This document shows, in pieces, positions 10,019-23,382 of a stretch of 23,382 nt of DNA. The number at the start of each line of letters is the position of its first letter. The first letter of the stretch is position 1. Origin of the DNA: a virus (lineage: Duplodnaviria > Heunggongvirae > Uroviricota > Caudoviricetes); IMG/VR virus record IMGVR_UViG_3300025853_000035, positions 128,001-151,382 of that record; one strand, 5' to 3'. Below the pieces are notes generated by a model, which worked only from the letters and a program-made list of their open reading frames with translations, was not told the DNA's origin and ran no database searches. Position numbers and translations under genes: made by a program.

Positions 10019-10024
10019 ATTATT

Positions 10025-10053: not shown

Positions 10054-10117
10054 GCCATACCGTATAGCGTGTCGTGCTAGAATGACTGTGAGTCGGATGG
10101 CTACGCCTTTGTCGCCC

Positions 10118-10148: not shown

Positions 10149-10152
10149 CCTA

Positions 10153-10962
10153 TCATGCTGCGTAGAGGTAAAGCACCTCTTCGATCACCGGGTGGCGGAC
10201 CACGTCGGCGCGGGTCAGGGCGTAATAGCCGATCCGCTCCCAGCGGCGGGGTTCGGCCGGCAGGCGCTCCTCGCCCGTGATGAAGCCCGGCAGTTCCGGC
10301 TCGAACGCTTCCTCCTCGGCTTCCTCGCGCTGCTTGAGACGGCGCGTGATGTCGGCCAGACCGCTGACGGTGGTGCCGAGTTCCTTGCGATCCCACTGCT
10401 CGGTGTCGCCGGTGACGATCATCTTGCTGTTCTCGCCGATGCGGGTCAGCAGCATCTTCATCTGGTCGGCGGTGGCGTTCTGCATTTCGTCGGCGATGAT
10501 GATCGCGTTCTTGAACGTGCGGCCACGCATATAGGCGAGTGGCGCGATCTCGATCTCCTCGCGCTGGAGCATCTGCTGGACGGCGATGACGCCGAAGCAT
10601 TCGTTCAGCACGTCCACGATCGGGCGGGTCCACGGAGCCATCTTCTCGTTGAGCGTGCCCGGCAGGTAGCCGAGGTCGTCGCCGGTCGCGACATTGGGGC
10701 GGGTAATGATGATCTTGTGGAATTCACCGGCGATGTATTTGTCCGCTGCTTCACGAACGGCCATGTAGGTCTTGCCGGTGCCGGCCGGCCCCTCGACGAT
10801 GAGGATGTCGTGCCGCATCTGGCGGAGCTTGCGCAGATAGCCTTTCTGGTTGGGAGTGGAAGCGGTGAGCTTGGGCGGGGCTTTGTGCTTGGTGGATTCC
10901 ATCTTCTCTGCGATGTGTGAGGCGTTGGTGGGGAAGAAGGTCTGCTTCTTGTTGCCGGACAC
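10153..10962 (-). CDS. phoH: PhoH-family ATPase
   Basis: Walker A GPAGTGKT, LGYLPG..EKM.PW, YMRGRTF, DEMQN, LLTRIG, TGD..Q.D, DVVRH. The GTG start at 10962 has an AGGAG RBS. Confidence 0.95.
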   Translation of the reverse strand: MSGNKKQTFFPTNASHIAEKMESTKHKAPPKLTASTPNQKGYLRKLRQMRHDILIVEGPAGTGKTYMAVREAADKYIAGEFHKIIITRPNVATGDDLGYLPGTLNEKMAPWTRPIVDVLNECFGVIAVQQMLQREEIEIAPLAYMRGRTFKNAIIIADEMQNATADQMKMLLTRIGENSKMIVTGDTEQWDRKELGTTVSGLADITRRLKQREEAEEEAFEPELPGFITGEERLPAEPRRWERIGYYALTRADVVRHPVIEEVLYLYAA

Positions 10963-11457
10963 AGAAAACTCCTGTGAGCGTGTGAGGGAGGGAGCAAAGG
11001 AACGCCCATCACTCGGCAAAATTTATATAACGTCGCGGCATAATGGCGGTGAAACGATACGGCCGATACGCCTTTGGGTCCCCGGCTATGCCGTGAACGC
11101 CTTCGGTGGTCCCCCTACGGGGTCGCAAAAATAAAATTTGCCGGGGTGGCTTTTGGGCGTGATGCTGCGATGGGGAGGTGGTCTGGGTCCCTCCGGGGGG
11201 TCCCAATTTTCATTCCGACCGGGGTGGCGTGATGCCGATAGGTGAAGGGGAGTGATGTTCCGGTGAAGGGTTGCCGGTTCGGAACGGAGTGGTTAACGGT
11301 TGAGGTGGCCGTTGGGCGTGATGGTAGCACAGCTATATGGGAAAGTCCACCTATTTTGATTCAGGTAGACACTTAGTGCGCCCAGAATCGGGGCAATGGG
11401 TATACCCCCAAAGGAACCCCGCCCGGCCAAAAAATTTCGCTAAAGGATGCGATCCGA

Positions 11458-11543
11458 ACAAAAAAGAGCGCGACTCGATCGAGTCGCGCTCAGTGATTCG
11501 CTTTCGCTTATGTGATTCGTTTGGTGATTCGTTATGCGATTCG
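11458..11543. promoter_or_regulatory. 26-bp perfect palindrome (possible terminator) plus GANTC cluster
   Basis: GAGCGCGACTCGATCGAGTCGCGCTC at 11466-11491 next to an A-tract; GANTC at 11472, 11481, 11495, 11514, 11526 and 11538. Confidence 0.6.
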
Positions 11544-11599
11544 TTTACGTTAATGCGATGGCATGGCCATGGGTAGGGCATGGCCATGCCATGGCTAGG

Positions 11600-11839
11600 C
11601 TATGCCATAGCGCCACGATAGGTCTGGCAACGGGTCACGCGCAGGGCTTGGCGGCCAGCGAAGGCAAGGGAGTCGCGCCATGCGCCTAGTTCCGCCTCAG
11701 TCAGGGCATAGCGTGCCGCCGCGTCCGCCAGCGTGATTGCGCCCGCGTCGATAGCGGCGACAATGGCAATCTTGCGCTTAGGCGTGAAACGCGCGTTTGA
11801 GGCGGGAAGGGCGTTCAAAAGGGTTTCGATGTTGTTCAT
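11600..11839 (-). CDS. sciP: SciP-like CtrA inhibitor (DUF1153, small HTH protein)
   Basis: LPASNARFTPKRKIAIVAAIDAGAITLADAAARYALTEAELGAWRDSLAFAGRQALRVTRCQTYR follows the recalled SciP pattern LP....RW..RRK..VV.AV.GG..S..EA..RY.L..EE...W......G...LR.TR.Q.YR. Confidence 0.8.
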   Translation of the reverse strand: MNNIETLLNALPASNARFTPKRKIAIVAAIDAGAITLADAAARYALTEAELGAWRDSLAFAGRQALRVTRCQTYRGAMA

Positions 11840-11987
11840 TGCCTGTCTCCATTTGGTTAGTGATTCGTTTATCTATTATTCCACCGATTCGGTCAAGCAC
11901 ATTATCCTTAATATCTCATGCCATTTCGTTAACCATATCTGTTAGGGTTAATATCCATGGCTTTGCTGTTAACCCTAACGCCTAGCA

Positions 11988-12109
11988 GGCACGGGCAGGG
12001 AAGGCCGCTAGGGCAGGCAGGGGCACGGGCAGGGAAGGCCGCTAGGGCAGGCAGGGGCACGGGCAGGGAAGGCCGCTAGGGCAGGCAGGGGCACGGGCAG
12101 GGAAGGCCG
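11988..12109 (+). repeat. 34-bp G-rich tandem repeat, ~3.6 copies
   Basis: Unit GGCACGGGCAGGGAAGGCCGCTAGGGCAGGCAGG; period 34 (ACGGGC at 11991, 12025, 12059, 12093). Confidence 0.95.
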
Positions 12110-12155
12110 GAATCGAAAGGGCCGCCCTAGGGCGGCCCTTTTGGGGTGGCGGCCC

Positions 12156-12434
12156 TTATGCTTGGGCCGCTTTCCACTTGGCAATTTCAGCCTGCCGACG
12201 GGCCTCAAAATCACCCGTTGCGTAGGGGCTGCGGCCATGGGTGAAGCTGGAGTCGGCCCGTTCGATCCGCGACTTTTTCGGCAGATTGCGGTCGCTGTTA
12301 TCGCTCAGCATGACTTCACAACGGCCATACTTGTAAAGCGCCGTTTCGTGAGCCTGACGCTCAGAAACCGCCGAAATGAAAGCCACGAAAACCTTGTTCT
12401 TGTAGATTGCGAAGGTGGGGATGTTCTTGGCCAT
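12156..12434 (-). CDS. Hypothetical protein, 92 aa (cassette 2)
   Basis: Start reassigned to the ATG after GGAGACAGAC (MAKNIPTF...). Confidence 0.75.
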   Translation of the reverse strand: MAKNIPTFAIYKNKVFVAFISAVSERQAHETALYKYGRCEVMLSDNSDRNLPKKSRIERADSSFTHGRSPYATGDFEARRQAEIAKWKAAQA

Positions 12435-12714
12435 TGTCTGTCTCCGTTTGCGTCTCGATGACTTACTTCTAGGGCCGATTTTTGATTCGGTCAAACACTT
12501 TCTGCAATTATTTTGGCGCGTCACTTCCTCCACCAAAACAGGCGGATTCATGATCTAGGCCGCTAGGGCGGGCGCGTCATGGCCCGCTAGGGGCGGCGCT
12601 GGGCGTCGATAGGCCGCGCCGGGCAGTCTGGCCGCGCTTTGCCGCTAGGCGCGCTCCTTGGGCGTCTGGGCGGCTCCTACGGGCGCAAAATGACCGCGAT
12701 CCATAATTAGGCCC

Positions 12715-12855
12715 TCAGAAACCGGCTTGCAGCTTGCTGAAAACCTCATTGACGAAATCCGCCACTTCCATCGCCACGAACACGGCACCGACCGCGACCG
12801 CAATCTTTACAGAAAATCCGCCGATCAGCAGGCCAACAATTCGGTTCATGTCCAT
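12715..12855 (-). CDS. Small membrane protein, 46 aa (cassette 3)
   Basis: MDMNRIVGLLIGGFSVKIAVAVGAVFVAMEVADFVNEVFSKLQAGF after GGAGACAGAC. Confidence 0.7.
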   Translation of the reverse strand: MDMNRIVGLLIGGFSVKIAVAVGAVFVAMEVADFVNEVFSKLQAGF

Positions 12856-13020
12856 GGTCTGTCTCCTTTCCAGACATAGGATGGACGCGGCGACCGATTC
12901 GGTCAAGCACTTTCTCCACTTATTTTTCGACTCGTTATGGTTAACGCGGCTGGGCAATTTATTAACCTTAACAGATTGTTGGGGCGCAAAAAAAGGGAGG
13001 CTTTCGCCTCCCTCCTTGGC

Positions 13021-13365
13021 TTAATGGCCGTAGTTGCAGCCGATATAGTAGAGCCGCCCGGCGACCAGATAAGCGATGTCCGCCGATCCGCAGCAGCCCG
13101 CATTAGCGGCTTCCTCATAGGCCGCCCATTCGGTGGCGCGGTCGGCGAAGGCGGCGCGATAGTTGTCGCGATAATCCTCGTCCGCAACCGCGTCATGGAA
13201 AAGCGCGTGCGCCTCTTCCACCGTGGCAACCGCTGCCAGCGCGCGGACCATGGTGCGCTCGCCCTCGAACGCGAGGAGGGCCGCAGCCGCCTCCGCAGCG
13301 GCGAGGTCCGCAGCCTCGATCACCGAAGCGGAGCAGTTGGAGCGGAGGAAGAGGAAGTAGTTCAT
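13021..13365 (-). CDS. Hypothetical protein, 114 aa (cassette 4)
   Basis: GGAGACAAG RBS; C-terminal GCCGS...IGCNYGH; terminator follows. Confidence 0.8.
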   Translation of the reverse strand: MNYFLFLRSNCSASVIEAADLAAAEAAAALLAFEGERTMVRALAAVATVEEAHALFHDAVADEDYRDNYRAAFADRATEWAAYEEAANAGCCGSADIAYLVAGRLYYIGCNYGH

Positions 13366-13437
13366 GGCTTGTCTCCTAGCCGGGTTGATGAGTGATGATT
13401 CTCATATTCCACCGATTCGGTCAAGCACTTTGTTTGC

Positions 13438-13638
13438 CTATTGGTATTGTCTTTTTGATGCGGACATAAGCACAACATGCCCAGCCATTTTCGCAATCAT
13501 GCCCAGCGCCAGCAGGCTGGCGGCGTTCATCTCCAGCGGCGTTTCTGGCCATGTCATATCAGGGGCGATTGTCGTGGCCGCCCAGACGCAAAGCAAGGCG
13601 AAGGCATAAAGGGCGGCGATCAGGATGGCTTTAGGCAT
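13438..13638 (-). CDS. Small membrane protein, 66 aa (cassette 5, second gene)
   Basis: GGAGACAA RBS; MPKAILIAALYAFALLCVWAA..., two hydrophobic segments. Confidence 0.7.
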   Translation of the reverse strand: MPKAILIAALYAFALLCVWAATTIAPDMTWPETPLEMNAASLLALGMIAKMAGHVVLMSASKRQYQ

Positions 13639-13657
13639 GGTATTGTCTCCGGTTCGA

Positions 13658-13885
13658 TCAGGCGGCCAAAGGCGCGGCATATTCAGCGAAAAGCGATTCC
13701 GCTTCCGCGAGCGTCAAGCCCTTGGCGACGCATTCCCAATCGTGGACCATTGCGCCCGAAACGGACTCGGCCCGATAGATCGGCGCGGCCTGCACCCACT
13801 TAGGCGCGCGGATGGAAACGGCGAAACCCGCCGCGCGCTGCACGATCATGACATTTTCGTTAGCTGACTTGCGAATGACTTTCAT
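13658..13885 (-). CDS. Hypothetical protein, 75 aa (cassette 5)
   Basis: MKVIRKSANE... after GGAGACAGAC; ends in LAA. Confidence 0.75.
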   Translation of the reverse strand: MKVIRKSANENVMIVQRAAGFAVSIRAPKWVQAAPIYRAESVSGAMVHDWECVAKGLTLAEAESLFAEYAAPLAA

Positions 13886-14042
13886 GGTCTGTCTCCATCG
13901 GCGCTGCGCCGTTGGACGGTAAGTCACATACTCCACCGATTCGGTCAAGCACTTTCGCAAGAAAAACGACGCCACAAGGGAAGCTGGCGTTAACCTTAAC
14001 AGATTGTTACCACCAAAAGAAAAGGGCCTTTCGGCCCTTCGC

Positions 14043-14429
14043 TCAATATGGCGAGCAACCATATTTGGCCCATTCCTTCACGGCGATTCCGCGCTTCCAT
14101 AGGGCGTGTTCGCGATCCTGCGCATCCTCGCAGCCTTCCGCCTCAAACCACCACCGGAGGGCGTCCGCACGGGCGATTCCGTGGTCGTGCTGGAGGTCGG
14201 TCAATTCCTCCTCCAGCTTGGCGATAGCGGCGGCAGAACGGACGGCCTCGCGGTCATTCTCTTCCGCGATCATCTTGCCCAATTCATCGAATGCGACGGC
14301 GTAGTCCTCCAGCGTGACAGGGCAATGCACGCCGCCATTGCGCGGGCGGAAACCGTAGGCGTCTTTGTGCATGTCCGAATAGATGACGGCGGCCTGTTCG
14401 AGGTCGGTGAGTGCGTTCCAGTCGGTCAT
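14043..14429 (-). CDS. Phage hypothetical protein, 128 aa (cassette 6)
   Basis: GGAGGAGACAGAC RBS; YSDMHKDAYGFRPR motif recalled from other phage proteins. Confidence 0.8.
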   Translation of the reverse strand: MTDWNALTDLEQAAVIYSDMHKDAYGFRPRNGGVHCPVTLEDYAVAFDELGKMIAEENDREAVRSAAAIAKLEEELTDLQHDHGIARADALRWWFEAEGCEDAQDREHALWKRGIAVKEWAKYGCSPY

Positions 14430-14569
14430 TGTCTGTCTCCTCCGGCACCGCGCCGGTGACTTCCTTCTAGAGTCGTTCCAGCGATTCGGTCAAGCACTTT
14501 GTTCGGTAGATAGTTGTTAAGGTTAACGCCGGGCCGGGCACAAAAGAAAAGGGCCTTTCGGCCCTTCCC

Positions 14570-15193
14570 TTAATCCTCCCTCCTTCCGTCTTCCCGGAAG
14601 GTGTAACCGTTCGCCTCCATAGCGTCGGCAATCTGTTCATCGCTTCGCAAATATTCGTCCTCGTCCCGGAGGCGATCATAGAGCCACCGGCCCAAATCCT
14701 TGGCGATCTCCTTGATCTCCTCGGCACGTTCATGCGCGCCGTCGGTCCAATCAAATTCGCTGGGTTCCGCTTGCGTGCCGTAATAGTGATGATAGGTGAC
14801 GACATAGGCGGAACGGTAGAAGGTCCGGGCGTGCAAGGCCGCGATGCGGTCCGCTAGGGCGTGTAAGACCGTATCCTGCGGCGCATAGTCCCGCACGGCC
14901 TTTGCCATCCCCTTGGCATAGGTCATCGTGCCTTCAAAGGCCGCATAATCGCTTTGCGAGTAGCCCAGCGACCACCAGATGTTTGCATCGTAGCGCGTTG
15001 CGCCCGACATCAGGGTGACAGGGTGCGTCTTGAAACTGACGCCCATAAGCTCGGCGATCGTCTTGAAGTCGTCGATCGTGGATTCATAATCCGTCTCGTC
15101 GCGGCAATCCAGCCACCACTGCTTGGCGGTCTCCTTGGCCGAGTCGCTCAATTCGTCATAGGTGTAAAGCGTGATCGTCGTTTCGGTCGGCAT
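14570..15193 (-). CDS. Mobile-element protein, 207 aa, resembling the family often labelled 'antitoxin of toxin-antitoxin stability system' (cassette 7)
   Basis: Y..DELSD.AKE.A..W...SQ.D.A.FEG...YAPQD..LH..AD...DL.RWLY..L..E.EYL.SDE......AN.YTF.E.G.R pattern, recalled rather than searched. Confidence 0.7.
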   Translation of the reverse strand: MPTETTITLYTYDELSDSAKETAKQWWLDCRDETDYESTIDDFKTIAELMGVSFKTHPVTLMSGATRYDANIWWSLGYSQSDYAAFEGTMTYAKGMAKAVRDYAPQDTVLHALADRIAALHARTFYRSAYVVTYHHYYGTQAEPSEFDWTDGAHERAEEIKEIAKDLGRWLYDRLRDEDEYLRSDEQIADAMEANGYTFREDGRRED

Positions 15194-15357
15194 TGTCTGT
15201 CTCCTCCGCATTGGTGCGGTAGGGCTGGAGTAGAGGGCTAAAGTGATTCGGTCAAGCACTTATTCCAGATCAAGAATGGTTAACGGGCTGGGGCGATTTC
15301 GTTAAGGTTAACGGATGAGGCGGGCGGAAGAAAAGGGAGGCTTGCGCCTCCCTTCGG

Positions 15358-15702
15358 TCATTCCGCCGGGGAGTAAATTACCCGCCCTTCGTCGCGCAGC
15401 TTCTCCAGATCGCATTCGATAGCGTAATTGTTGAAATACCAGCAGCGGCCGATGATTTCGTTTGCGCCGTCGTCGTGCGTCGTCATTTCCTCCGCAACGC
15501 ATGGGGCGGAAGTCAGCCCGACGAAAGGATTTGCCTGCCCCGCGTCAAAGTGGGTGAAAGAGCCATTGCAGGCGTAAGACTCGAACAAGTCCGCCATGAC
15601 AAGCCAGTAATTGCGGTCGGCGTGGTCGGCGATATATTCCCGCGCTTCTTCGTCGGCGGTGATCTCCAGATCGCCATTTTCGAGGATCGTGCATTCAATC
15701 AT
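15358..15702 (-). CDS. Acidic hypothetical protein, 114 aa (cassette 8)
   Basis: MIECTILENGDL... after GGAGACAGAC; terminator follows. Confidence 0.8.
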   Translation of the reverse strand: MIECTILENGDLEITADEEAREYIADHADRNYWLVMADLFESYACNGSFTHFDAGQANPFVGLTSAPCVAEEMTTHDDGANEIIGRCWYFNNYAIECDLEKLRDEGRVIYSPAE

Positions 15703-15807
15703 GGTCTGTCTCCGTTGTGATGATTCGTTTTGGCATAATCCATCGATTCGGGCAACCACTTTATCCATAAAAAGAAAGCCCCGGCGCGCTAGGCTCCGGG
15801 GCGATGA

Positions 15808-15873
15808 TTAGAAGCTGGCCGCAACGGTAATCAGCAGCAGGCCGGTAAAGAGGCGGGAAAGGGCTATCAGCAT
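15808..15873 (-). CDS. Hydrophobic micropeptide, 21 aa
   Basis: MLIALSRLFTGLLLITVAASF; TGATG coupling to the upstream gene; ends just before a terminator. Confidence 0.55.
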   Translation of the reverse strand: MLIALSRLFTGLLLITVAASF

Positions 15874-16178
15874 CAGGCCGCCGCGTCCTCCTCTTCGTCA
15901 AACTCCTCGGCAAGATAGACGCCGTGGCCGCTATGTTCCACCTGCCCGGCGGGCTGGATCGTCATGGCCGGGCTAAGGCTCATTTCGGGCATGTCAGGGC
16001 CGAACGCTTCGCCGGTGATGTAAAGGCCGTCCCCGACCTCCTGCCGCCTGTTGCTGAACTCGATAGCCGCCCCGTCAGCGGTGAGGGCGTCGGCCTTGGC
16101 CTGCGCCTCCTCCAGCGTGTCGGCCAAAATATAGAGGCTGGCGCAAATCATGATTTCGGTCTGGAACAATTTCTGCAT
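15873..16178 (-). CDS. Acidic hypothetical protein, 101 aa (cassette 9, second gene)
   Basis: Own AGGAGACAGAC RBS; ends in EEEDAAA. Confidence 0.8.
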   Translation of the reverse strand: MQKLFQTEIMICASLYILADTLEEAQAKADALTADGAAIEFSNRRQEVGDGLYITGEAFGPDMPEMSLSPAMTIQPAGQVEHSGHGVYLAEEFDEEEDAAA

Positions 16179-16205
16179 GGTCTGTCTCCTTGCGCGGTGT
16201 GCTGA

Positions 16206-16505
16206 TTAGTGGTGGCGGCGGTAGGCGGCGTTCAGGTCGCCATAGGGATCGTAGCGCACGGCGCGAGCCACTGCCCGGCGCTTCGCCTCCTCCAACGTCT
16301 CGCAATATTCCCCGCCGTGATAGCCGCCCAACTGTGTGTTGGCAAAGTGGACGGCGTAGGGGTGCATCTCATTGTGCGGAAGGTGGCGGATAACCACCGC
16401 GCCCGGCGCGGTCGCGCCTCGTCCGGCCATACCATAGAACTGGACGGATTCCTCTTTGGCCTTGGCAATCAGGGCAGGGCTTCCGTGGGTGAAAGGTGCG
16501 GTCAT
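16206..16505 (-). CDS. Hypothetical protein, 99 aa (cassette 9)
   Basis: GGAGACAGAC RBS downstream of the repeat promoter. Confidence 0.75.
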   Translation of the reverse strand: MTAPFTHGSPALIAKAKEESVQFYGMAGRGATAPGAVVIRHLPHNEMHPYAVHFANTQLGGYHGGEYCETLEEAKRRAVARAVRYDPYGDLNAAYRRHH

Positions 16506-16670
16506 TGTCTGTCTCCCTCCGGCTGGGTGCCGGTGATTCGTAACTAGGGGAGGGGACCGATTCGGTCAATCACTTATTCCAGAAAAGAAATGGTTAACGG
16601 GCTGGGGCTGGGCGTTAAGGTTAACAGGAAGGGCAAGCGAAAGAAAAAGGGAGGCTTTCGCCTCCCTCCC

Positions 16671-17033
16671 TTAGCGTGCCCAATAGGTTACGCCGTTGAA
16701 CTCGCCGCTTGTGTAATCCATCTGGAGGGCGCGGGCGGCGGCCTCCCAATCGATATGACAGGCAGGCCATGCGGACTCCTTCGGGATCGCGCCGATCTCC
16801 TCCGCCAACTCCTCGGCATAGTCCTTGAAATAGGAGTCACGAATGAAGGTGACAGGGAACCACGAATTTTCCCATTCATGATCGCCGCCGTATCCCCGGA
16901 ACTGCTCGATAAAGGCGCGCATGGCGGCGGCCTCTTCCTTTTCGTCGCTTTCCGGGTCCGCCTCGATCTCCTCGATCAGGTCGATGATGTCGCGGATGTC
17001 CATAACGTCTTGATATTCGTCGATGGTGGTCAT
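16671..17033 (-). CDS. ArdA-like acidic antirestriction / DNA-mimic candidate, 120 aa (cassette 10)
   Basis: Very D/E-rich; DYAEELAEEIG.IP......HIDWEAAARAL.MDY resembles the ArdA C-terminal domain. Confidence 0.6.
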   Translation of the reverse strand: MTTIDEYQDVMDIRDIIDLIEEIEADPESDEKEEAAAMRAFIEQFRGYGGDHEWENSWFPVTFIRDSYFKDYAEELAEEIGAIPKESAWPACHIDWEAAARALQMDYTSGEFNGVTYWAR

Positions 17034-17183
17034 TCGGTCTGTCTCCGTCGGCTCTGTGCCGGTGATTCGGAGATAGGGGAGGGGACCGATTCGGTCAAGC
17101 ACTTATTCCAGAAAAGAAATGGTTAACGGGCTGGGCCGGGGCGTTAACCTTAACGAATGATTACCAGCGAAAGAAACGCCGCC

Positions 17184-17258
17184 CTATTTGAGGGCGGCGG
17201 CTATGAGGATAAGGAAAAAGCCGGTTATCGCCCCGGCTATGGCGCGTAGCAGCGTCAT
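17184..17258 (-). CDS. Hydrophobic micropeptide, 24 aa
   Basis: MTLLRAIAGAITGFFLILIAAALK; ATGA coupling; similar to 15808-15873. Confidence 0.55.
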   Translation of the reverse strand: MTLLRAIAGAITGFFLILIAAALK

Positions 17259-17665
17259 CGGCTTGCCAGATCATCAAAGCGGCGTTGCATCAGGTCCGAT
17301 ACGTTGCCGTCGTCGGGCATGTCCGCAAAAGTGATGTCGGCAAAGTCATCCCACACCCAATCATAGCCTTGCTTCCACTCGCCCAGCACGGCGGGATTGC
17401 CCCGGCCCGTCTCGACAAATTCGCGGAAGGCGTCGCGGACATAGGTTTCCCCGTCGCCGGTCAGGGGATTGTCAAGGAAGGTCCGACAATGGCCGCAATG
17501 CTGCGGGCAATCCGCTTCCCCGCCGCCTTCCGAATAGGGGCCTTGCGGGAAGGAGTTGGAGTCCGGCTCATGCCCATCGGCCGCGCCTGAACGGATCAGG
17601 TCAGCCTTGATGTCGGTCGCGCAATTGTCGCAATAGATGTCGGATTGAAAGATGTAGGCGTCCAC
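17255..17665 (-). CDS. Hypothetical Cys-containing (possibly Zn-binding) protein, 136 aa (cassette 11)
   Basis: GTG start after GGAGACAGAC; CDNC and CPQHCGHC motifs. Confidence 0.8.
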   Translation of the reverse strand: MDAYIFQSDIYCDNCATDIKADLIRSGAADGHEPDSNSFPQGPYSEGGGEADCPQHCGHCRTFLDNPLTGDGETYVRDAFREFVETGRGNPAVLGEWKQGYDWVWDDFADITFADMPDDGNVSDLMQRRFDDLASR

Positions 17666-17820
17666 GGTCTGTCTCCTAGTTGCCTAGCCTGATTCGCATA
17701 GTCCACTGATTCGGTCAAGCACTTTGTTCGGCGACAAGTTAACAAAGGGTGCGATTTTGTTAAGGTTAACGGAAGCGTCCGGGTAAGGAAAAGGGGAGGC
17801 GTTTACCTTCCCTCTTTGGT

Positions 17821-18327
17821 TCATCCCCACATCCACACCTTGCCCGACTCATGGTCAAAGCCAAATTCAAGCCGGTTTGCCCGCGTCGCGTCGTTCAACC
17901 GTTCCAGACAATCGGCGTTGCCGTCGTCGGTGAAGGATACGCCATGCCCTACGGAAAGCATGTAGAGGGTGGAGCCGATGCGCTCATATGACAGGCCGTT
18001 GCTGGTATAGCGCAGGCCTTCGCTTCCGGGTTCCAGATCAAGCGCCGATTCGATGTCGGCGGCGTTGGCGGTCATGAACGCTTCGCAATAGGCCTTGCAG
18101 CGCTGATAGGTTTCGTCGTCCAGCGTGTAGATTGTGCCGGTGTCGCCTTCCTCGCGCTCTTCCTCGCAAGCTTCATCCATCTCGCTATATTGCAAATCCT
18201 GCAACATGGTCGCGACGAAGTCGGCAAGGATCGGGCAGGCCTTAAAGTCAGCCTTGCGGGCGGCTTCCCGTTCGCGGGTGGCGTCGTCGATTTCGTGGAA
18301 GCCGGTATAGTCGCGGGCGTCGGGCAT
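17821..18327 (-). CDS. Acidic hypothetical protein, 168 aa (cassette 12)
   Basis: GGAGGAGACAGAC RBS; GHGVSFTD motif. Confidence 0.8.
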   Translation of the reverse strand: MPDARDYTGFHEIDDATREREAARKADFKACPILADFVATMLQDLQYSEMDEACEEEREEGDTGTIYTLDDETYQRCKAYCEAFMTANAADIESALDLEPGSEGLRYTSNGLSYERIGSTLYMLSVGHGVSFTDDGNADCLERLNDATRANRLEFGFDHESGKVWMWG

Positions 18328-18505
18328 TGTCTGTCTCCTCCGGCTTGCTTGCCGGTGATTCGTTTCTGAAACATTCCGCTGATTCGGTCAAGCACATATT
18401 CCAGATTTAGATGGTTAACGGATCGCTCGATTTCGTTAAGGTTAACAAATGGTAGTGGTCAAAAAATTTGGTTAACGGGGAGGGCTTCCCCGTTAACCTT
18501 TGGTG

Positions 18506-18898
18506 TCAGGCCATTTCCTCCTCGGCCTTGTCGATGACGGGCCGGAGTTCTTCCCAGATCGCTTCCGCGAAGTCGTTGGCGCTGTAGTCGCTGATAACGT
18601 CATAGCCGTCATTCCCATAGACCAGATACCACTGGCCCAACAGGGTGCCTTCCGCGTCGCGGGCGACGATCCGGTCCTCGTCGGTCGTGAAGAGCGCGCC
18701 GATGATGGTGCCCTTGTCGGTCGAGCGCTTGACGGTCCATTCCTCGCCATCGTTGACGCTGACAGCGCAGCCCTTGGCCAGCAGGGCGTCCACCAGTGCG
18801 GCGCAGATGCGGCCTTCGATGCGGATGCGCTTGGCGAGGCGCTTTTCGCCCTTGGCTTCGGCGTTCTGGGCGTAGATGGTGAAGTTTCCGTAGTGCAT
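18506..18898 (-). CDS. Phage hypothetical protein, 130 aa (cassette 13)
   Basis: GGAGACAGAC RBS; V.DGEE and LVYGNDGYDVISDY motifs. Confidence 0.8.
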   Translation of the reverse strand: MHYGNFTIYAQNAEAKGEKRLAKRIRIEGRICAALVDALLAKGCAVSVNDGEEWTVKRSTDKGTIIGALFTTDEDRIVARDAEGTLLGQWYLVYGNDGYDVISDYSANDFAEAIWEELRPVIDKAEEEMA

Positions 18899-19055
18899 CG
18901 TCTGTCTCCGTTTGCGGTGATTCGTTCTTAGGACGGATCAGGTGATTCGGTCAAGCACTTCCTCCATTTTTCTTTTGGTTAACTTTTCCCGGCCGTTCGT
19001 TAAGGTTAACAGACGCGGGCGGTCAAAGAAAAAGGGAGGCTTTCGCCTCCCTCTC

Positions 19056-19448
19056 TTACTCGCCGAACCAGTAGCAGCGGATATAGGTTTCGATTGCGGA
19101 GTCTTCCTCGTTCGTCGTGGTGAGGTCGGTCCACGGCGTGCCCCAATCCTGCCATTGCAGCCGCCCATAGCTGGGCTGACAGTAGGCGTCCAGATCGCCC
19201 ACGATGCGAAGGGCAGGGCCGCCGGTCGAAAGGAGGATTTCAAATTCCTCCGGCGTGGCGTCTTCCTTCGCGCCGGGGGAATACCAGCCAGTCCGAACGG
19301 AAACCGAAAGGGCGTCTTGCTGGCATTCCTCGCGGAACGTGTCCGCCGCGTCGTGGTCGCCTTCCTGCTCCGCTGCGGTGAGGGCCTGCGCCTTCTCCAC
19401 GATGTCGGAAAGCCATGCTTTGGCGTTGGCGATTGCGTGCTGAGACAT
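19056..19448 (-). CDS. Acidic phage hypothetical protein, 130 aa (cassette 14, second gene)
   Basis: AAGGA RBS; ILLSTGGPALRI.G.L...LQWQDWGTPW motif. Confidence 0.8.
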   Translation of the reverse strand: MSQHAIANAKAWLSDIVEKAQALTAAEQEGDHDAADTFREECQQDALSVSVRTGWYSPGAKEDATPEEFEILLSTGGPALRIVGDLDAYCQPSYGRLQWQDWGTPWTDLTTTNEEDSAIETYIRCYWFGE

Positions 19449-19459
19449 TGCCGGTCCTT

Positions 19460-19591
19460 TCAGGCGAAAGTGAAGAGGTTGCGGCGGGCGTTCTTCGCCT
19501 TGCGCTGCGCCTTGCGGTCGCGCTTGTCGGCGCGCTCAACGCGCTTGAGTTCGCGGCCATAGCCCTTCTTGTCTTCCAGAATGATCTTCAT
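19460..19591 (-). CDS. Basic Lys/Arg-rich peptide, 43 aa (cassette 14, first gene)
   Basis: MKIILEDKKGYGRELKRVERADKRDRKAQRKAKNARRNLFTFA directly after GGAGGAGACAGAC; below the ORF-track size cutoff. Confidence 0.7.
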   Translation of the reverse strand: MKIILEDKKGYGRELKRVERADKRDRKAQRKAKNARRNLFTFA

Positions 19592-19758
19592 GGTGTCTGT
19601 CTCCTCCGCTTGATTGCGGTGATTCGTTTCTGGACCATTTAGATGATTCGGTCAAGCACTTATTCCAGAAAAAGAATGGTTAACTGGCTGGGGCGGTTTC
19701 GTTAAGGTTAACGCAGGTGGCCGGGCGAAAGAAAAGGGAGGCGCTGGGCCTCCCTTGT

Positions 19759-20016
19759 TCAAACGCCGCGCCCGTGCGGACCAGCCTGCTCGCAGAACAC
19801 GGCCCGGCCTTGCTCCGCGTTGGCCTTGGTCAGCCATGCGCAATCTTCGCCGGTCAGGCTATGGTCGATGACATATTCGTCCGCGCCCCGCGTCTCGATC
19901 AGCAGCCACAAGTCGGGCGCTTGTGCGATCTCCGGCGGGGCAGAGGGCTGGGCCTCCCCGCAGGCCGCCAGCGGCAGCAGGGAGACCATGGCGAGCGCGA
20001 TGACAAGGCGGCTCAT
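19759..20016 (-). CDS. Putative lipoprotein, 85 aa (cassette 15, second gene)
   Basis: Signal peptide MSRLVIALAMVSLLPLAAC with lipobox LAAC; ATGA coupling. Confidence 0.7.
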   Translation of the reverse strand: MSRLVIALAMVSLLPLAACGEAQPSAPPEIAQAPDLWLLIETRGADEYVIDHSLTGEDCAWLTKANAEQGRAVFCEQAGPHGRGV

Positions 20017-20255
20017 GCGTTCGCCTCAGCGGCGGCGTTCAGCGCCTCCTTGGCGTCGTCCGGGAAGCGATCCCAGAAGTCGGCGACGCAATCCATGCCG
20101 TAGCAGGGTTCTTCCGACACCTCCGGCGAAGGGGCCTTGTAATCGGCCACACAACCCCAAAGCATCTGATACAGGTCGGCGTTGATGCCGTCCCAGCATT
20201 CAGCCACTTCGTCCGGGCGGACGACTTCAAGAGCGGGGTGAGGTGCGATGGTCAT
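20013..20255 (-). CDS. Acidic hypothetical protein, 80 aa (cassette 15)
   Basis: GGAGACAGAC RBS downstream of the repeat promoter. Confidence 0.75.
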   Translation of the reverse strand: MTIAPHPALEVVRPDEVAECWDGINADLYQMLWGCVADYKAPSPEVSEEPCYGMDCVADFWDRFPDDAKEALNAAAEANA

Positions 20256-20424
20256 TTCGTCTGTCTCCGTGCGGCTTGCTTGCCGCTGATTCGGGGATAG
20301 ACAAGGGGACCGATTCGGTCAAGCACTTATTCCAGAAAAAGAAATGGTTAACGGGCTGGGCTTGGGCGTTAAGGTTAACAGGCGGCGGGCGGCGCGGAAA
20401 AGGGAGGCTTGCGCCTCCCTCCAG

Positions 20425-20631
20425 CTAGGCCGCCTTTACCGTCACCTTGACCGGGCCGCCGAGGTCGCACCGGCCATCGGTCAAGCCTTCGCTGATTTCG
20501 ATAAGCCCGGCGCGCAGCGTGTCGCGCCCGATCATGTCATCGGCGAAATAGTCGAAAAGTTCGGTCGCATAGCGCCGGGCGGTGGCGACGCATGGTTCGG
20601 CGCGGAAAGCGTCTTGGCGTTCGTCAAGCAT
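20425..20631 (-). CDS. Hypothetical protein, 68 aa (cassette 16, second gene)
   Basis: GGAGGT RBS before MLDERQDAF...; ends in KAA; terminator follows. Confidence 0.7.
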   Translation of the reverse strand: MLDERQDAFRAEPCVATARRYATELFDYFADDMIGRDTLRAGLIEISEGLTDGRCDLGGPVKVTVKAA

Positions 20632-20845
20632 GGGCGGGCACCTCCGTGATGACAAGAGCGCCTTTGCGGGCGGCGTTGTGTCCTACGGCCTTCGCCACGG
20701 CGGACGAATAGAAAAGGCTCTGCCCGATGAAGTCGCCGCAGAAGCGGGCGACGAAGCGCGCTTCGGGGTAGCCGCAAAATTCCGTGGTGATGGTATAGCG
20801 CCGATCCGGGCGACCGTCGTTCGTTACAGGGTGATTAGCGGGCAT
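20624..20845 (-). CDS. Hypothetical protein, 73 aa (cassette 16)
   Basis: MPANHPVTND... after AGGAGACAGAC; EFCGY...RFVARFCGDFIG. Confidence 0.75.
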   Translation of the reverse strand: MPANHPVTNDGRPDRRYTITTEFCGYPEARFVARFCGDFIGQSLFYSSAVAKAVGHNAARKGALVITEVPAHA

Positions 20846-21001
20846 GGTCTGTCTCCTTGTTGTGATTCGTGGATAGACAAGGGGACCGATTCGGTCAAGC
20901 ACTTATTCCAGAAAAAGAATGGTTAACGGGATAGGGCTGGGCGTTAAGGTTAACAGGAGGGGCCGGGTAAAGAAAAGGAGGCATAAGCCTCCCTATCTCC
21001 C

Positions 21002-21424
21002 TCATTCGTTGATAAAGAATGGCTTATACGCGCCCCGGTCATGGAACCCACCGCGATAGGGAACCACGCGGGGCCAGTAATGTCCGCGATTCTGGACTCG
21101 CCCATCGTCGGCATAGTCCGCCGGATCGATTCCATGCTTCCCATAGTAATCCTCGCGATTGCTATGGGTGGAATAAAACACGCCATCGAAGAATCCGCCG
21201 AAAATTAAATGGTCGCGGTAAAATTCGTCACGCCGGGCGGCCATATAACCATCCAGATAGGCCCATACCCAGCCGGGCGTTCCCTTGGGCGTGTCGGCGC
21301 GCATTGCCGACAGGGACGCTTGAATCTCAGCGTTAGGCAAGCCGCAAGTGATGGCCATGCTGCACAGGTCAGCCATCCGAGTCTTGAAAGAGTCACGAAG
21401 GGCGAGGGCGCGTTCAAGGCGCAT
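21002..21424 (-). CDS. Hypothetical protein, 140 aa (cassette 17)
   Basis: MRLERALALR... after GGAGACAGAC. Confidence 0.75.
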   Translation of the reverse strand: MRLERALALRDSFKTRMADLCSMAITCGLPNAEIQASLSAMRADTPKGTPGWVWAYLDGYMAARRDEFYRDHLIFGGFFDGVFYSTHSNREDYYGKHGIDPADYADDGRVQNRGHYWPRVVPYRGGFHDRGAYKPFFINE

Positions 21425-21571
21425 AGTCTGTCTCCAGCCGCTTGATTGCGGTGATTCTTTTCTGGACCTTTCGCCCGATTCGGTCAAGCACTTATTCCAG
21501 AAAAGCATTGGTTACTAAATGACCGCGCCGCGTTAAGGTTAACAGGTTCGGCACGGTAAAGGAAAGGCGGC

Positions 21572-21724
21572 CTAAGCCGCCATCTCCTCCAGAACCTTGT
21601 TAATCGCCGCTTCCCGGCTCATGCCGCCCTTAATCAGGGGCTGGGCTTTCGTTTCGATCTCGTCGGCCAGTTGGAAGGCAATGGCGCGAAGTTCGCGGGG
21701 CGATCGGCGGGTCGGCTGGGTCAT
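21572..21724 (-). CDS. Hypothetical protein, 50 aa (cassette 18)
   Basis: MTQPTRRSPRELR... after GGAGACAGAC; ends in MAA. Confidence 0.7.
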   Translation of the reverse strand: MTQPTRRSPRELRAIAFQLADEIETKAQPLIKGGMSREAAINKVLEEMAA

Positions 21725-21825
21725 TGGTCTGTCTCCGGTTTCGATGATTCGGTTTCTCATATCCCACCGATTCGGTCAAGCACTTATTCCACAAAAAGAA
21801 AGGGAGGCTTTCGCCTCCCTCCTTT

Positions 21826-22086
21826 TCAGGCCAGCCGCCCGACATAACAGTAACTGTTATATTGTTCGGGGTGAATCTCACCGTCCTTGCAAAGCATGTC
21901 GGTCCAGTTGTTGAACGCTTCGGAAATGGCCGGTTCGTCGTCCTCGCCATATGCCTCGATAACGTCGGGCAGGACTTCGGAGTCGAAGCGTGCGCTCAAC
22001 TCCTCTTCGCTGGCGATTCCGCCAAAATCCACGGCGTAGGATTCGACCATGTCCAGCAGGTCCACGCGGTTCCAATTAATGGCCAC
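21826..22086 (-). CDS. Acidic phage hypothetical protein, 86 aa (cassette 19, second gene)
   Basis: GTG start with GGGAGG RBS; AFNNWTDMLCKDGEI motif. Confidence 0.75.
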   Translation of the reverse strand: MAINWNRVDLLDMVESYAVDFGGIASEEELSARFDSEVLPDVIEAYGEDDEPAISEAFNNWTDMLCKDGEIHPEQYNSYCYVGRLA

Positions 22087-22174
22087 GGCGCGTCCTCCCC
22101 TTGGCGATCCGCTGGGCGAGGGCGGCGATGCGCTTGGCGCGCTCCTCGCGGGCTTTTTTCTGGCGGGCGGTCAT
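22076..22174 (-). CDS. Basic Arg/Lys-rich peptide, 32 aa (cassette 19, first gene)
   Basis: MTARQKKAREERAKRIAALAQRIAKGRTRRGH directly after AGGAGACAGAC. Confidence 0.6.
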   Translation of the reverse strand: MTARQKKAREERAKRIAALAQRIAKGRTRRGH

Positions 22175-22337
22175 GTCTGTCTCCTTGGCGGCTTGATTGC
22201 CGTTGATTCGTTTCTAGGGCAGGGGACCGATTCGGTCAAGCACTTATTCCAGAAAAAGAATGGTTAATGGGCTGGGCCGCCGTGTTAACCTTAACGAATG
22301 GTGAGGCCCAAAAGAAAAGGGCCTTTCGGCCCTTCCC

Positions 22338-22589
22338 TTAGAAGGAACGGTCAGCCATATCCTCCAACGTGCAAACCAGCCCGTCGAAGTCTTCTTCCGG
22401 TCCCAGCAATTCGGCCATCTCGATAGCCATGGGCAGATCGACGCCGTGGTCGTCCGCCAAGTCGCGGATATAGCCGTAGCGATCGAAGCAGCCGTCCTCT
22501 TCGTAGCGTTCGAGCGGGATGGTGCGCGCCGCGTTAAGCCGGAGGACGGTGGCGAGGGGGATGCCTTCCGGCGAGCGAAGATTGGTCAT
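22338..22589 (-). CDS. Acidic phage hypothetical protein, 83 aa (cassette 20)
   Basis: MTNLRSPEG... after AGGAGACAGAC; LLGPEEDFDGLV..LED motif. Confidence 0.75.
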   Translation of the reverse strand: MTNLRSPEGIPLATVLRLNAARTIPLERYEEDGCFDRYGYIRDLADDHGVDLPMAIEMAELLGPEEDFDGLVCTLEDMADRSF

Positions 22590-22755
22590 CTGTCTGTCTC
22601 CTTGCAGCTTGCTTGCTGCTGATTCGTTTCTGGCATTGTCAGATGATTCGGTCAAGCACTTATTCCAGAAAAAGAAATGGTTAACAGGCTGGGCGATCCT
22701 GTTAAGGTTAACGGGAAGGCCGGGCGCAAGAAAAGGGAGGCGAAAGCCTCCCTCC

Positions 22756-22968
22756 TTAGTGGACCTTGTTGCCGCGCGCGTCGCGCTGAAAGCGTCCCTT
22801 GATATTGGACCGGGCCAGATTGGAATGGAGCCGGGCCAGATGGTCGGCGGCTTCCCGGCACGTCCGACTCCATGTCGTCGTGCCGACATATTCCCACCGC
22901 TTGAGAGCTTCGCTGAATACGAAAAGGTCAATCTTGGGATAGTCCCGCTTGTCGCCATAGCTTACCAT
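22756..22968 (-). CDS. Hypothetical protein, 70 aa (cassette 21, second gene)
   Basis: GGGAG RBS, overlaps the upstream stop, terminator follows. Confidence 0.7.
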   Translation of the reverse strand: MVSYGDKRDYPKIDLFVFSEALKRWEYVGTTTWSRTCREAADHLARLHSNLARSNIKGRFQRDARGNKVH

Positions 22969-23252
22969 GCGACGACTCCCTTTTCCTTGGCGTCGTGGAA
23001 GTCGGGCAGGACGGCTTCGCTGATAGGGCGCAGGCCGCTAACCGGGCTGCAACGGCTATAGCTTTCGCCCTTGAAAAGCTGGAAGCCCAACAGGCCGGGC
23101 TTGACGAAGCGCAGGCGGTGCGCCTGTTCGCGGGCGGCAGCGCTGGCGCGCTCCTTGCTGAAACGCCCGTCAATCTGGACAACGCCATCCGAGCCGCATG
23201 TGGGCGAAAGCTGGCCGGAAAGGTTGGCGTGATAGAATACGGCGAAAAACAT
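22962..23252 (-). CDS. Hypothetical protein, 96 aa (cassette 21)
   Basis: MFFAVFYH... after GGAGGAGACAGAC; CGSDGVVQIDGR. Confidence 0.75.
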   Translation of the reverse strand: MFFAVFYHANLSGQLSPTCGSDGVVQIDGRFSKERASAAAREQAHRLRFVKPGLLGFQLFKGESYSRCSPVSGLRPISEAVLPDFHDAKEKGVVAW

Positions 23253-23351
23253 GGTCTGTCTCCTCCGGCTTGCCTGCCGGTGATTCGTTTCTGTCATTGT
23301 CCGCCGATTCGGTCAAGCACTTATTCCACAAAAAGAAAGAGGGGGCGTTAG

Positions 23352-23382
<31 letters not shown>

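Follow-up and report, generated by a model that had tools for sequence, protein, structure and literature searches.

Layout of the early-gene array

Why does every promoter of an early-gene array in a Sphingomonadales phage contain a GANTC site of the methylase CcrM, and is the site there for the sigma70 cofactor GcrA? The source is a virulent Lacusarx/phiCbK-like siphophage with a genome of 151 kb. The window, i.e. the whole stretch of 23,382 nucleotides that was analysed, is the end of the 151-kb record, and an array of about 25 cassettes runs across the two ends of the record. Judged by synteny, this array probably makes up the terminal repeat. In each cassette a terminator, TTAAC boxes, the promoter, a 5' hairpin, a ribosome-binding site and a small ORF follow one another, and also the upstream tract, the ribosome-binding site and the terminators are near-identical from cassette to cassette.

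11600-23382, minus strand: early-gene array of 21 cassettes, syntenic with the early regions in the terminal repeats of Lacusarx, XM05 and L02
G000:409-2546: continuation of the array at the other record end, with four more promoters
11603-11839, minus strand: last cassette gene, encoding a 79-aa DUF1153 (SciP-family) protein (PF06627, E 1.6e-17, 63.8 bits, cut-off 23.5)

Promoter anatomy

The core GATTCGG[T/G]CAA has 21 matches in the whole window, all on the plus strand, and the promoters are therefore read on the minus strand; with up to two mismatches, the 11-mer has 28 matches, against 8.3 +/- 2.5 in shuffles. The promoter coordinates below come from one core and box scan of the window, box 1 being the GANTC next to the -35 and box 2 the usual second one.

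11862-11896, minus: promoter 1 (SciP-like gene); first T of the -35 at 11896; box 1 11886-11890, box 2 11862-11866
12460-12494, minus: promoter 2; box 1 12484-12488, without box 2
12872-12906, minus: promoter 3; box 1 12896-12900, without box 2; the sole -10 ending in T
13390-13424, minus: promoter 4; box 1 13414-13418; second GANTC 13397-13401 at the -10 position, after TGN
13914-13948, minus: promoter 5; box 1 13938-13942, without box 2
14459-14493, minus: promoter 6; box 1 14483-14487; GACTC at offset 19 (14470-14474)
15221-15255, minus: promoter 7; box 1 15245-15249, without box 2
15721-15755, minus: promoter 8 (degenerate -35, TTGCCC); box 1 15745-15749, box 2 15722-15726
16535-16569, minus: promoter 9; box 1 16559-16563, box 2 16535-16539
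17064-17098, minus: promoter 10; box 1 17088-17092, box 2 17064-17068
17684-17718, minus: promoter 11; box 1 17708-17712; second GANTC 17691-17695 at the -10 position
18357-18391, minus: promoter 12; box 1 18381-18385, box 2 18357-18361
18919-18954, minus: promoter 13; box 1 18944-18948, box 2 18919-18923 (25 bp away)
19621-19655, minus: promoter 14; box 1 19645-19649, box 2 19621-19625
20288-20322, minus: promoter 15; box 1 20312-20316, box 2 20288-20292
20864-20898, minus: promoter 16; box 1 20888-20892, box 2 20864-20868
21453-21487, minus: promoter 17; box 1 21477-21481, box 2 21453-21457 (flank A for C)
21746-21779, minus: promoter 18; box 1 21769-21773, box 2 21746-21750
22205-22239, minus: promoter 19 (consensus: TTGACC, 17-bp spacer, TAGAAA); box 1 22229-22233, box 2 22205-22209
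22621-22655, minus: promoter 20; box 1 22645-22649, box 2 22621-22625
23282-23316, minus: promoter 21; box 1 23306-23310, box 2 23282-23286

An earlier note on this DNA had described a GcrA-type word abutting the -35 of all cores, a frequent second GANTC and variable bases in between, and the scan bears this out. The -35 is TTGACC in 20 of the 21 promoters and, as had been said of the degenerate unit, TTGCCC in one (first T at 15755), and the hexamer is in all 21 directly followed 3' by non-template CGAATC[A/G] (YGATTCG if read on the plus strand, the template). A second GANTC lies within 45 bp downstream in 17 of the 21, and in 14 it starts 23-25 bp past the first one, at offsets 29-31 counted from the leading T of the -35; the remaining ones are at offset 23 in two promoters (13397, 17691), a minority class with GANTC inside the -10, and at offset 19 in one (14470). 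Box 1 thus lies at about -29 to -25 and box 2, in two thirds of the copies, at about -5 to -1, and the two have the same oriented word in direct repeat. The 12 spacer positions from box 1 to the -10 occur in 19 distinct sequences with a mean pairwise identity of 0.39, and box 1 is invariant (100% conserved; 21 of 21 copies in the window, 26 of 26 in the genome). As the spacer is only 39% identical while box 1 is invariant, the boxes are no duplication artefact. Box 1 is GAATC in all copies of the source phage, so that within this phage a requirement for the plain sequence and one for GANTC are inseparable.

The -10 hexamers (offsets 23-28) are TAGAAA, CAGAAA, TATCTC, TATCCC, TAGTTA and similar, and 20 of the 21 have no T at -7. 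The earlier note had been right about this and had taken it as a sign that the promoters need an activator, an argument that fails because more than 80% of a sphingomonad's sigma70 promoters lack the -7T; the known general helper there is CarD, not GcrA.

Four of the 16,384 heptamers (eight on both strands) match YGAKTCG, and the promoter holds one of them twice. Counted by region, as had been proposed, YGAKTCG occurs 54 times in the 14.8-kb array, where dinucleotide shuffles give 12.5 +/- 3.2, whereas GANTC is depleted in the remaining 137 kb, where 305 sites compare with 811 +/- 28 in dinucleotide shuffles, 400 expected from a maximal-order Markov model and 486 from base composition. A like contrast of a rich array and a poor rest of the genome is found in XM05.

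Conservation among related phages

The cassette copies are paralogues, which is why the 21 do not count as 21 independent events and independent evidence has to come from the comparison across phages. Erythrobacter phage XM05 has 24-27 copies with box 1 at offset 6 and box 2 at 30, vB_EliS-L02 has 25 copies with box 1 moved to offset 5 and box 2 at 30, and Lacusarx has eight copies with a box at offset 5 and a mid-spacer box at 15-16 that reads GACTC, GAGTC or GAATC; in Citromicrobium phage RXM the boxes are at offsets 2 and 14. Such a mid-spacer box, at offsets 14-16, is present in RXM, L035, Lacusarx and L042. The early regions themselves have no megablast alignment beyond 1% coverage with XM05, the sole record matched. 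In the pooled set of 223 unique candidate promoters from about 15 phage contigs of the clade, GANTC starts at offsets 5-6 (127), 14-16 (51) and 29-30 (105) and nearly nowhere else in 0-33. Among 200 spacer sites, 169 (85%) read CGAMTCR on the non-template strand, i.e. YGAKTCG on the template, and the middle letter is A at 163 of the sites, C at 30, G at 6 and T at 1. Sister phages differ in the central base and in the position, which jumps among discrete windows, and they keep GANTC and its Y...G flanks. By this comparison the boxes are under constraint across the phage clade, positionally fixed and endowed with the flank that GcrA prefers.

Fit to GcrA and proposed mechanism

Sphingomonadales are known from the literature to have CcrM, GcrA and GANTC methylation, and in a Sphingomonas methylome GANTC was the main m6A motif (PMC8067484). 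GcrA has TGATTCG as its best motif, or YGAKTCK in a broader form (PMC4647560), and upstream GcrA boxes centre at -20 +/- 1 and -30 +/- 2 (PMC9976885). Box 1 starts at about -29 and so matches the GcrA-activated ctrA P1 promoter with its GANTC at -29/-28 (PMC4287350), although the specificity of GcrA in Sphingomonadales may differ. With the transcription start assumed 7 nt past the -10, the centre of box 1 at -27 is 1 bp outside the published -30 window, and the boxes in mid-spacer (offsets 15-16) miss the -20 one by 1-2 bp. The centre of box 2, at about -3, falls in the discriminator, a place nearly devoid of GcrA boxes in Caulobacter; GcrA-regulon sites are almost absent near the -10 (Haakonsen et al.). 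The GcrA reading of the earlier note is supported by the fixed sites, the preferred flank and the ctrA P1-like box 1, but not by box 2, which is outside the known positions. Alphaproteobacterial phages, Lacusarx among them, had been scanned for GcrA sites with a PSSM in a published study, which reported no positional asymmetry (PMC9437464), and we found no publication describing GcrA-type boxes at fixed places in phage promoters.

As the promoters hold the methylase/GcrA word at fixed places, the earliest transcription of the phage is probably coupled to the cell-cycle machinery of the host. The full explanation, to which we give an even chance, is that the early promoters would be GcrA-boxed sigma70 promoters linked to the host cell cycle. 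Every small gene has a strong promoter to itself, of the type used by host RNA polymerase with the primary sigma factor, which consists of an A-rich UP-like tract, a TTGACC -35, a 17-bp spacer and a weak -10; downstream of it are a 5' hairpin and a ribosome site of consensus sequence. The CcrM sites are built into the promoter such that their flank and strand orientation are those best bound by GcrA. Box 1, and likewise the alternative mid-spacer box of the sister phages, would be the GcrA box; GcrA on sigma70 domain 2 would bind box 1 on the spacer face away from the polymerase and raise polymerase binding and open-complex formation where the -10 is poor. Early transcription would then depend on how much GcrA there is and on how the incoming DNA is methylated, and the upstream TTAAC (CtrA-type) boxes and the SciP-like gene of the phage may help to couple early expression to the cell-cycle circuit of the host. 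Box 2 is under constraint as well, and it may give GcrA a further contact in the closed complex, mediate an m6A effect on discriminator melting, or be an operator. As for the direction in which methylation acts, fully methylated, hemimethylated or unmethylated promoters could each be the active ones.

Alternative readings

The words could also be cis-elements for a factor other than GcrA, such as operators of an early or middle regulator encoded by the phage, sites of another host protein or, in case of box 2, an intrinsic discriminator or start-site element belonging to a strong promoter, and the likeness to GcrA sites would then be coincidental. The place of box 2 at -5 to -1 is a classic one for operators and discriminators, and the direct repetition of one oriented word as well as the constant central base of box 1 in the source phage fit this reading, as does the end of the array, where the box word recurs in tandem outside any promoter.

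11465-11545, minus strand: junction cluster downstream of the last cassette, with four tandem box-2 words and then a terminator-like hairpin

The 10-bp box-2 word is repeated here three to four times like an iteron or operator, three of the four copies being in 12-bp phase, and the hairpin has GACTC and GAGTC within its stem. At the matching place, XM05 has five overlapping GANTC sites and a hairpin of like type, and Lacusarx has two GANTC. That the word comes back outside a promoter also counts in favour of the GcrA reading. The XM05 sites, however, alternate in orientation, which better suits a palindromic methylation site than an oriented operator, no candidate regulator was found, the word is the top GcrA motif and one that few heptamers match, and sister phages swap the central base and shift the position yet keep GANTC with its flanks. 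A non-GcrA factor thus appears rather unlikely.

Unsupported and clearly less probable is the epigenetic early-to-late timer proposed by the earlier note, by which fully methylated virion DNA turns the promoters on and hemi- or unmethylated replicated copies are off. The fixed places of the CcrM sites in the promoters, their GcrA context and the preference of GcrA for methylated DNA speak for it, and an orphan NPPY amino-methyltransferase encoded by the phage is a candidate that could in principle methylate virion DNA. The search for homologs elsewhere in the genome, which the note had suggested, found neither a CcrM-family (PF01555) methylase gene nor a GcrA gene. In Caulobacter, CcrM occurs for just a short time late in the cycle, and the DNA of a fast-replicating phage therefore need not be fully methylated at packaging. 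Moreover, ctrA P1, the closest architecture, reaches its highest activity in the hemimethylated state and is shut off when fully methylated, which is the opposite polarity, and the sequence says nothing on timing.

Just as improbable is that methylation acts directly, by m6A of spacer and discriminator affecting DNA melting or sigma contacts without GcrA, or that the sites have a role outside transcription, in replication, packaging or restriction avoidance. Box 2 and the minority of sites overlapping the -10 do fall in the melting region, the remaining genome is depleted of GANTC, and the dense cluster at the array end is near the presumed repeat boundary, but a model without a reader does not predict the asymmetric flank and the one-strand bias (169 of 200 sites; central base A or C in 193 of 200). 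Finally, that the words have no function and ride along with duplicated, recombination-homogenised cassettes is already disfavoured and highly improbable. The copies are indeed paralogous with near-identical surroundings, but the spacers diverge next to an invariant box 1, phages with early regions too diverged to align still have the boxes, and the register of the boxes to the -35 varies by lineage.

Comparison with known systems

Like ctrA P1 of Caulobacter crescentus, the phage promoters are of the sigma70 type with GANTC directly 3' of the -35. That promoter has one site and a repressing CtrA half-site over the -10, whereas the phage promoters usually have two sites and their TTAAC boxes lie upstream of the -35; its dependence on hemimethylation was shown experimentally, whereas the phage promoters are known from their sequence. 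The GcrA-TACU cryo-EM class with the PcsM scaffold (PMC9976885) shares the non-template GAATC, the 17-bp spacer, the orientation and the preceding C. Its box is at offset 13 and those of the sister phages at 14-16 on the same strand, i.e. 1-3 bp downstream, whereas the promoters of the window use the -30-type position (offset 6) and not the -20 one; the class is from Caulobacter and the phage host is a sphingomonad. The PmipZ downstream-box class (boxes at +4 and +12) also has two close high-ranked boxes in one promoter and has boxes on the transcribed side of the -10, but box 2 of the phage, at about -3, is upstream of the published range (+2/+5 to +30), and the mipZ boxes have the opposite strand orientation.

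The CtrA-box early promoters in the terminal repeats of the related phiCbK-like phages (Mascolo et al. 2022, PMC9437464) are in the same genome region. These phages and the source phage alike have small early genes in arrays, with sites of host cell-cycle regulators in the promoters, and the source phage also has TTAAC/TTAACCAT boxes upstream. In the Caulobacter phiCbK-like phage CcrRogue, however, the CtrA box replaces the -35 and GANTC is absent from the terminal-repeat promoters, whereas in the source phage the -35 is of sigma70 consensus and the embedded word is of the GcrA/CcrM type. An adenine-methylation site in the core promoter is also found in the Dam-sensitive promoters of enterobacterial phages and insertion elements (IS10 pIN, phage P1 cre and Mu mom), whose activity follows the replication or methylation state. 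These depend on another methylase and site (GATC), have no dedicated methyl-reading sigma cofactor and are single promoters, whereas in the source phage a whole early regulon is concerned.

Genome context of the early-gene array

The window covers the final 23.4 kb of a virus record that is 151,382 bp long and has a G+C content of 60%. Its left half (1-11,000) carries genes for tail, head, portal and PhoH proteins, and this DNA is 76-79% identical to that of the Erythrobacter phages XM05 and vB_EliS-L02 (L02) and of the Sphingobium phage Lacusarx. The hosts of the relatives are Erythrobacter, Sphingobium and Citromicrobium, and XM05, L02, Lacusarx and the window phage all belong to the phiCbK-like siphophages that infect Sphingomonadales. 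Small genes on the minus strand form an array in the right half, and four more promoters lie at the opposite end of the record (G000:409-2546, G000 being the whole record). In Lacusarx, the stretch that is syntenic to the array sits between terminase and phoH, in the order terminase, array, phoH, portal gene, and this region of about 10.5 kb with doubled coverage has been taken as a direct terminal repeat. As no terminal repeat is present in the record itself, which finishes in a run of 31 C, the array is only a presumed terminal repeat. The 31 C (window 23352-23382) directly follow a terminator stem that is also found at G000:~430-480, and the run is probably an assembly artefact at this repeated terminator. 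Cassettes 1 and 2 are separated by a stretch that contains a perfect 34-bp tandem repeat of about 3.6 copies, G-rich on the plus strand (window 11988-12109).

Promoter anatomy

The promoter core occurs in 21 copies in the window, all on one strand, and each copy, read on the minus strand, consists of an A-rich tract followed by TTGACC (20 of 21; TTGCCC once) and an abutting GAATC. The cores are of the sigma70 type, with TTGACC, a 17-bp spacer and a -10 hexamer whose second base is A in every copy. The GANTC at offset 6 from the first T of the -35 hexamer (box 1) reads CGAATC plus A or G throughout, which corresponds to YGATTCG on the template strand. At least one GANTC lies within 40 bp of the inferred start site in 21/21 and two in 17/21, and in 14 of these 17 the second one starts 23-25 bp past the first, just after the hexamer that is 17 bp from the -35 (box 2); the exceptions are two copies in which it falls within the -10 position itself, after TGN, and one copy in which it is at offset 19. 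The counts in the earlier note, which had been made from the sequence alone, are exact for the 21 cores, the single TTGCCC unit, the 17 copies with a second GANTC and the 14 with 23-25 bp between the sites. The flanks agree with YGAKTCK/G at all 21 copies of box 1 and at 13 of the 14 copies of box 2 at 23-25 bp.

The 12 spacer positions between the boxes come in 19 versions with a mean identity of 39%, which bears out the earlier claim that the intervening bases vary, and box 1 is always kept. A terminal T is found in just one of the 21 candidate -10 hexamers, as had been noted, but as an argument for GcrA this carries no weight: more than 80% of the sigma70 promoters of Novosphingobium have no -7T, its absence being the rule in the host order, and CarD is known to activate promoters of this kind in general.

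The conserved bases that precede the -35 are best taken for a proximal UP-like A-tract; an EcfG-type or DnaA-box reading was rejected by eye, as spacing and words do not fit. The leaders of many cassettes (offset ~36-55) have a short GC hairpin of the CCGGCA...GCCGG type right after box 2, which precedes the invariant GGAGACAGAC ribosome site and likely stabilises the 5' end. Outside the array, the plus strand of the replication region has five more promoters of this family (G000:C1; -35 at 10148, 25609, 29273, 45390 and 46356); three of them retain box 1, and the promoter at 46356 is without box 1 and has TGAGTCG directly after its -10.

GANTC distribution and conservation in related phages

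The 14.8-kb array contains 94 GANTC (6.4 per kb), and its 54 YGAKTCG sites compare with 12.5 +/- 3.2 in dinucleotide shuffles. In the remaining 137 kb there are 305 GANTC (2.2 per kb), only 17% of them with the preferred flank, whereas 811 +/- 28 would be expected from dinucleotide shuffles, 400 from a maximal-order Markov model and 486 from base composition. The count by region that the earlier note had proposed thus shows that the word is enriched in the early promoters and avoided in the rest of the genome, and XM05 has a like contrast between its array and the rest of its genome.

As the cassette copies are paralogues, the weight of the evidence lies on the comparison across phages. Only 1% of the early region of XM05 can be aligned with the window phage by megablast, yet XM05 has 24-27 promoters with both boxes, at offsets 6 and 30. 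In L02 (25 promoters) and Lacusarx (8), box 1 shares one base with the -35 (offset 5); L02 retains box 2, Lacusarx is mostly without it, and six of the eight Lacusarx promoters have a mid-spacer GANTC at offset 15-16, which can be GACTC, GAGTC or GAATC. The Citromicrobium phage RXM has a GACTC that overlaps the -35, at offset 2, and also CGAATCG, at offset 14, and IMG/VR contigs with a portal protein at least 66% identical add the offset pairs 6+14, 2+15 and 7+15. When 223 unique candidate promoters were pooled across the clade, the GANTC starts were found at offsets 5-6 (127), 14-16 (51), 29-30 (105), 23 (8) and 2 (10), and almost none at other offsets between 0 and 33. A strand flip of boxes located downstream of the start, such as PmipZ has, was considered and dropped, being seen only in RXM and the clade contig L042 and absent from the pooled data.

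No GANTC pile-up was found in about 40 contigs of portal relatives at 25-46% identity. The promoters in the terminal repeat of the Caulobacter phage CcrRogue (1-10321) have no GANTC, and the trait is therefore not general to phiCbK-like phages.

Host methylation system

The m6A motif that dominates in a Sphingomonas is GANTC (PMC8067484), and in a survey that covered five orders every putative ctrA promoter of Sphingomonadales had a GANTC; gcrA and ccrM were also sought there in Sphingomonadales, with no figures given for the order. A GcrA match is present in 197 of 301 genomes sampled from the class to which a MAG titled Alphaproteobacteria belongs; the genomes come without taxon names, and the one that is unpublished (G033) bears on no conclusion drawn here. 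A scan of genome contigs with the PhoH protein returned only unrelated MAGs, none from sphingomonads. The presumed host order would fit a reading by CcrM and GcrA.

CtrA-type boxes and the end of the array

Most of the promoters are preceded by TTAAC/TTAACCAT words, which are CtrA-type half-sites. At window positions 11928-22712 (minus strand), GTTAACCTTAAC or its variant GTTAAGGTTAAC is found together with TTAACCAT, which stands some 25 bp before the -35; the spacing is not the canonical N7, and the words are also present in XM05, L02, Lacusarx and RXM. Two features mark the end of the array:

Window 11603-11839, minus strand: gene of the last cassette, 79 aa, DUF1153/SciP family (PF06627, E 1.6e-17)
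Window 11465-11545, minus strand: junction cluster of four tandem box-2 words, three of them in 12-bp phase

The DUF1153 protein is a phage version of the small protein that inhibits CtrA-dependent activation. The junction cluster lies just downstream of its gene and is followed by a GC hairpin, the stem of which contains GACTC and GAGTC, and by a T-run; at the same place, XM05 has five overlapping GANTC sites in alternating orientation and Lacusarx has two. The cluster may be a GcrA sink, a repeat boundary or an origin. Together, the CtrA-type boxes, the junction cluster and the gene for a SciP-like protein are a context that points the same way as GcrA boxes in the promoters.

Possible function of the promoter boxes

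The explanation that we favor, and to which we give an even chance, is that these are early promoters for the host sigma70 in which the spacer box is a GcrA box. The box would make up for the poor -10, and early transcription would then track the GcrA level and the methylation state. What the sequences show directly is how the promoters are built, that they are conserved, that flank and strand are biased and that the boxes fall into set windows; the start site, methylation, binding by GcrA and any timing are inferences from this. It is rather unlikely that the boxes belong to an unrelated operator or are a discriminator element, a position that box 2 does occupy. The GcrA flank is found on the template strand in 169 of 200 pooled spacer sites, and the central base of the non-template strand is A or C in 193 of 200. 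Such an asymmetry of flank and strand is predicted by the asymmetric GcrA motif.

The earlier note had gone further and proposed a timer, in which methylated virion DNA is on and newly replicated DNA differs. This is improbable: genes for GcrA (PF07750) and a CcrM-type methylase (PF01555) were sought throughout the phage genome, as the note had advised, and none was found, and the proposed polarity is unsupported, since ctrA P1 of Caulobacter is most active when hemimethylated (PMC4287350). The phage does encode a methyltransferase of its own, the target of which bears on the methylation state of virion DNA:

G000:C1:78703-79473 (L023:1204-1974), plus strand: amino-methyltransferase, motif I (AAGKG) before NPPY, phrog_799

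As motif I precedes NPPY, the enzyme is of the gamma class. It is 66% identical to a 'DNA methyltransferase' of XM05, has no Pfam match, and a PDB sequence search was uninformative. A direct effect of methylation on the promoters, with no GcrA as reader, is about as improbable as the timer, as the palindromic methylation site alone does not predict the asymmetry of flank and strand. That the boxes have merely hitch-hiked and have no function is very improbable indeed.

If GcrA does read the boxes, a broader picture can be drawn, tentatively: the entire early regulon of a clade of sphingomonad phages might be wired to the host CcrM-GcrA system, combined with CtrA-type boxes and a phage SciP homolog. 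The cell-cycle phase of the host, along with the past methylation of the DNA that is injected, would then gate the first minutes of infection, the box cluster that closes the array would be a GcrA or methylation sensor or sink, and GcrA boxes would be a general, unpublished design rule for early promoters in phages of Alphaproteobacteria.

GcrA and CcrM together are a textbook case of epigenetic cell-cycle control in bacteria, and to our knowledge this control is known only from chromosomal promoters. GcrA homologs and CcrM-like methylases have been noted in some phage genomes. No publication was found in which GANTC or GcrA is linked to the early promoters of phages. Host CtrA sites have been shown in the terminal repeats of phiCbK-like phages, and the same study scanned alphaproteobacterial phages including Lacusarx for GcrA sites and reported no asymmetry (PMC9437464), which also shows that the promoter feature has not been described previously. 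That scan does not contradict the present counts, because Lacusarx has just eight promoters and XM05 and L02 were perhaps left out, but its negative result for these phages would be revised if the boxes are what they seem. Phages would then read host methylation and cell-cycle state via a sigma cofactor, and about 25 natural variants of one promoter would be available for dissecting box position, flank and number. The idea is directly testable, as Lacusarx, XM05 and L02, which have the same promoters, are in culture, their respective hosts being Sphingobium sp. IP1, Erythrobacter sp. JL475 and E. litoralis DSM 8509.

Comparison with known GcrA and CtrA promoters

GcrA rides on domain 2 of sigma70 and activates promoters with methylated GANTC, preferring TGATTCG or, more broadly, YGAKTCK (PMC4647560). 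Its spacer boxes are centered at -20 +/- 1 and -30 +/- 2 (PMC9976885). With the start assumed 7 nt after the -10, box 1 spans -29 to -25, its center being -27 or -28 depending on the start chosen, and the boxes of the sister phages, with starts inferred likewise, are centered at -31, -28 and -19 to -17, the mid-spacer ones spanning about -21 to -16. With such a start, box 1 and the mid-spacer boxes of the relatives would lie within 1-3 bp of the published GcrA offsets and windows, and the box centers within 1-2 bp of the windows. In the scaffold used for cryo-EM, the non-template strand has the -35 hexamer, 7 bases, GAATC, 5 bases and the -10, which corresponds to offset 13 (PMC9976885), and GAATC is in the same strand orientation as the boxes here; the box positions appear to mirror this geometry. 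Likewise, ctrA P1 has its GANTC beside the -35 at -29/-28 (PMC4287350), and box 1 starts at about -29. The other GcrA boxes known are located downstream of the start, from +2/+5 to +30, and are nearly absent around the -10 (PMC4647560, PMC9976885), whereas box 2 lies in the discriminator at about -5 to -1 and a minority class (2 copies) in the -10 hexamer; both are outside the known GcrA positions.

The arrangement of CtrA sites differs as well. In ctrA P1, a CtrA half-site covers the -10 for feedback repression, whereas the TTAAC/TTAACCAT boxes of the array are upstream of the -35. The promoters in the terminal repeat of CcrRogue have a full CtrA box, TTAAC-N6-TTAAG, in place of the -35, followed by CTAGTGT, while the window phage has TTGACC as its -35 and keeps the TTAAC boxes further upstream. 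The Caulobacter and the sphingomonad branches of these phages thus appear to have recruited different host regulators in the same region of the genome.
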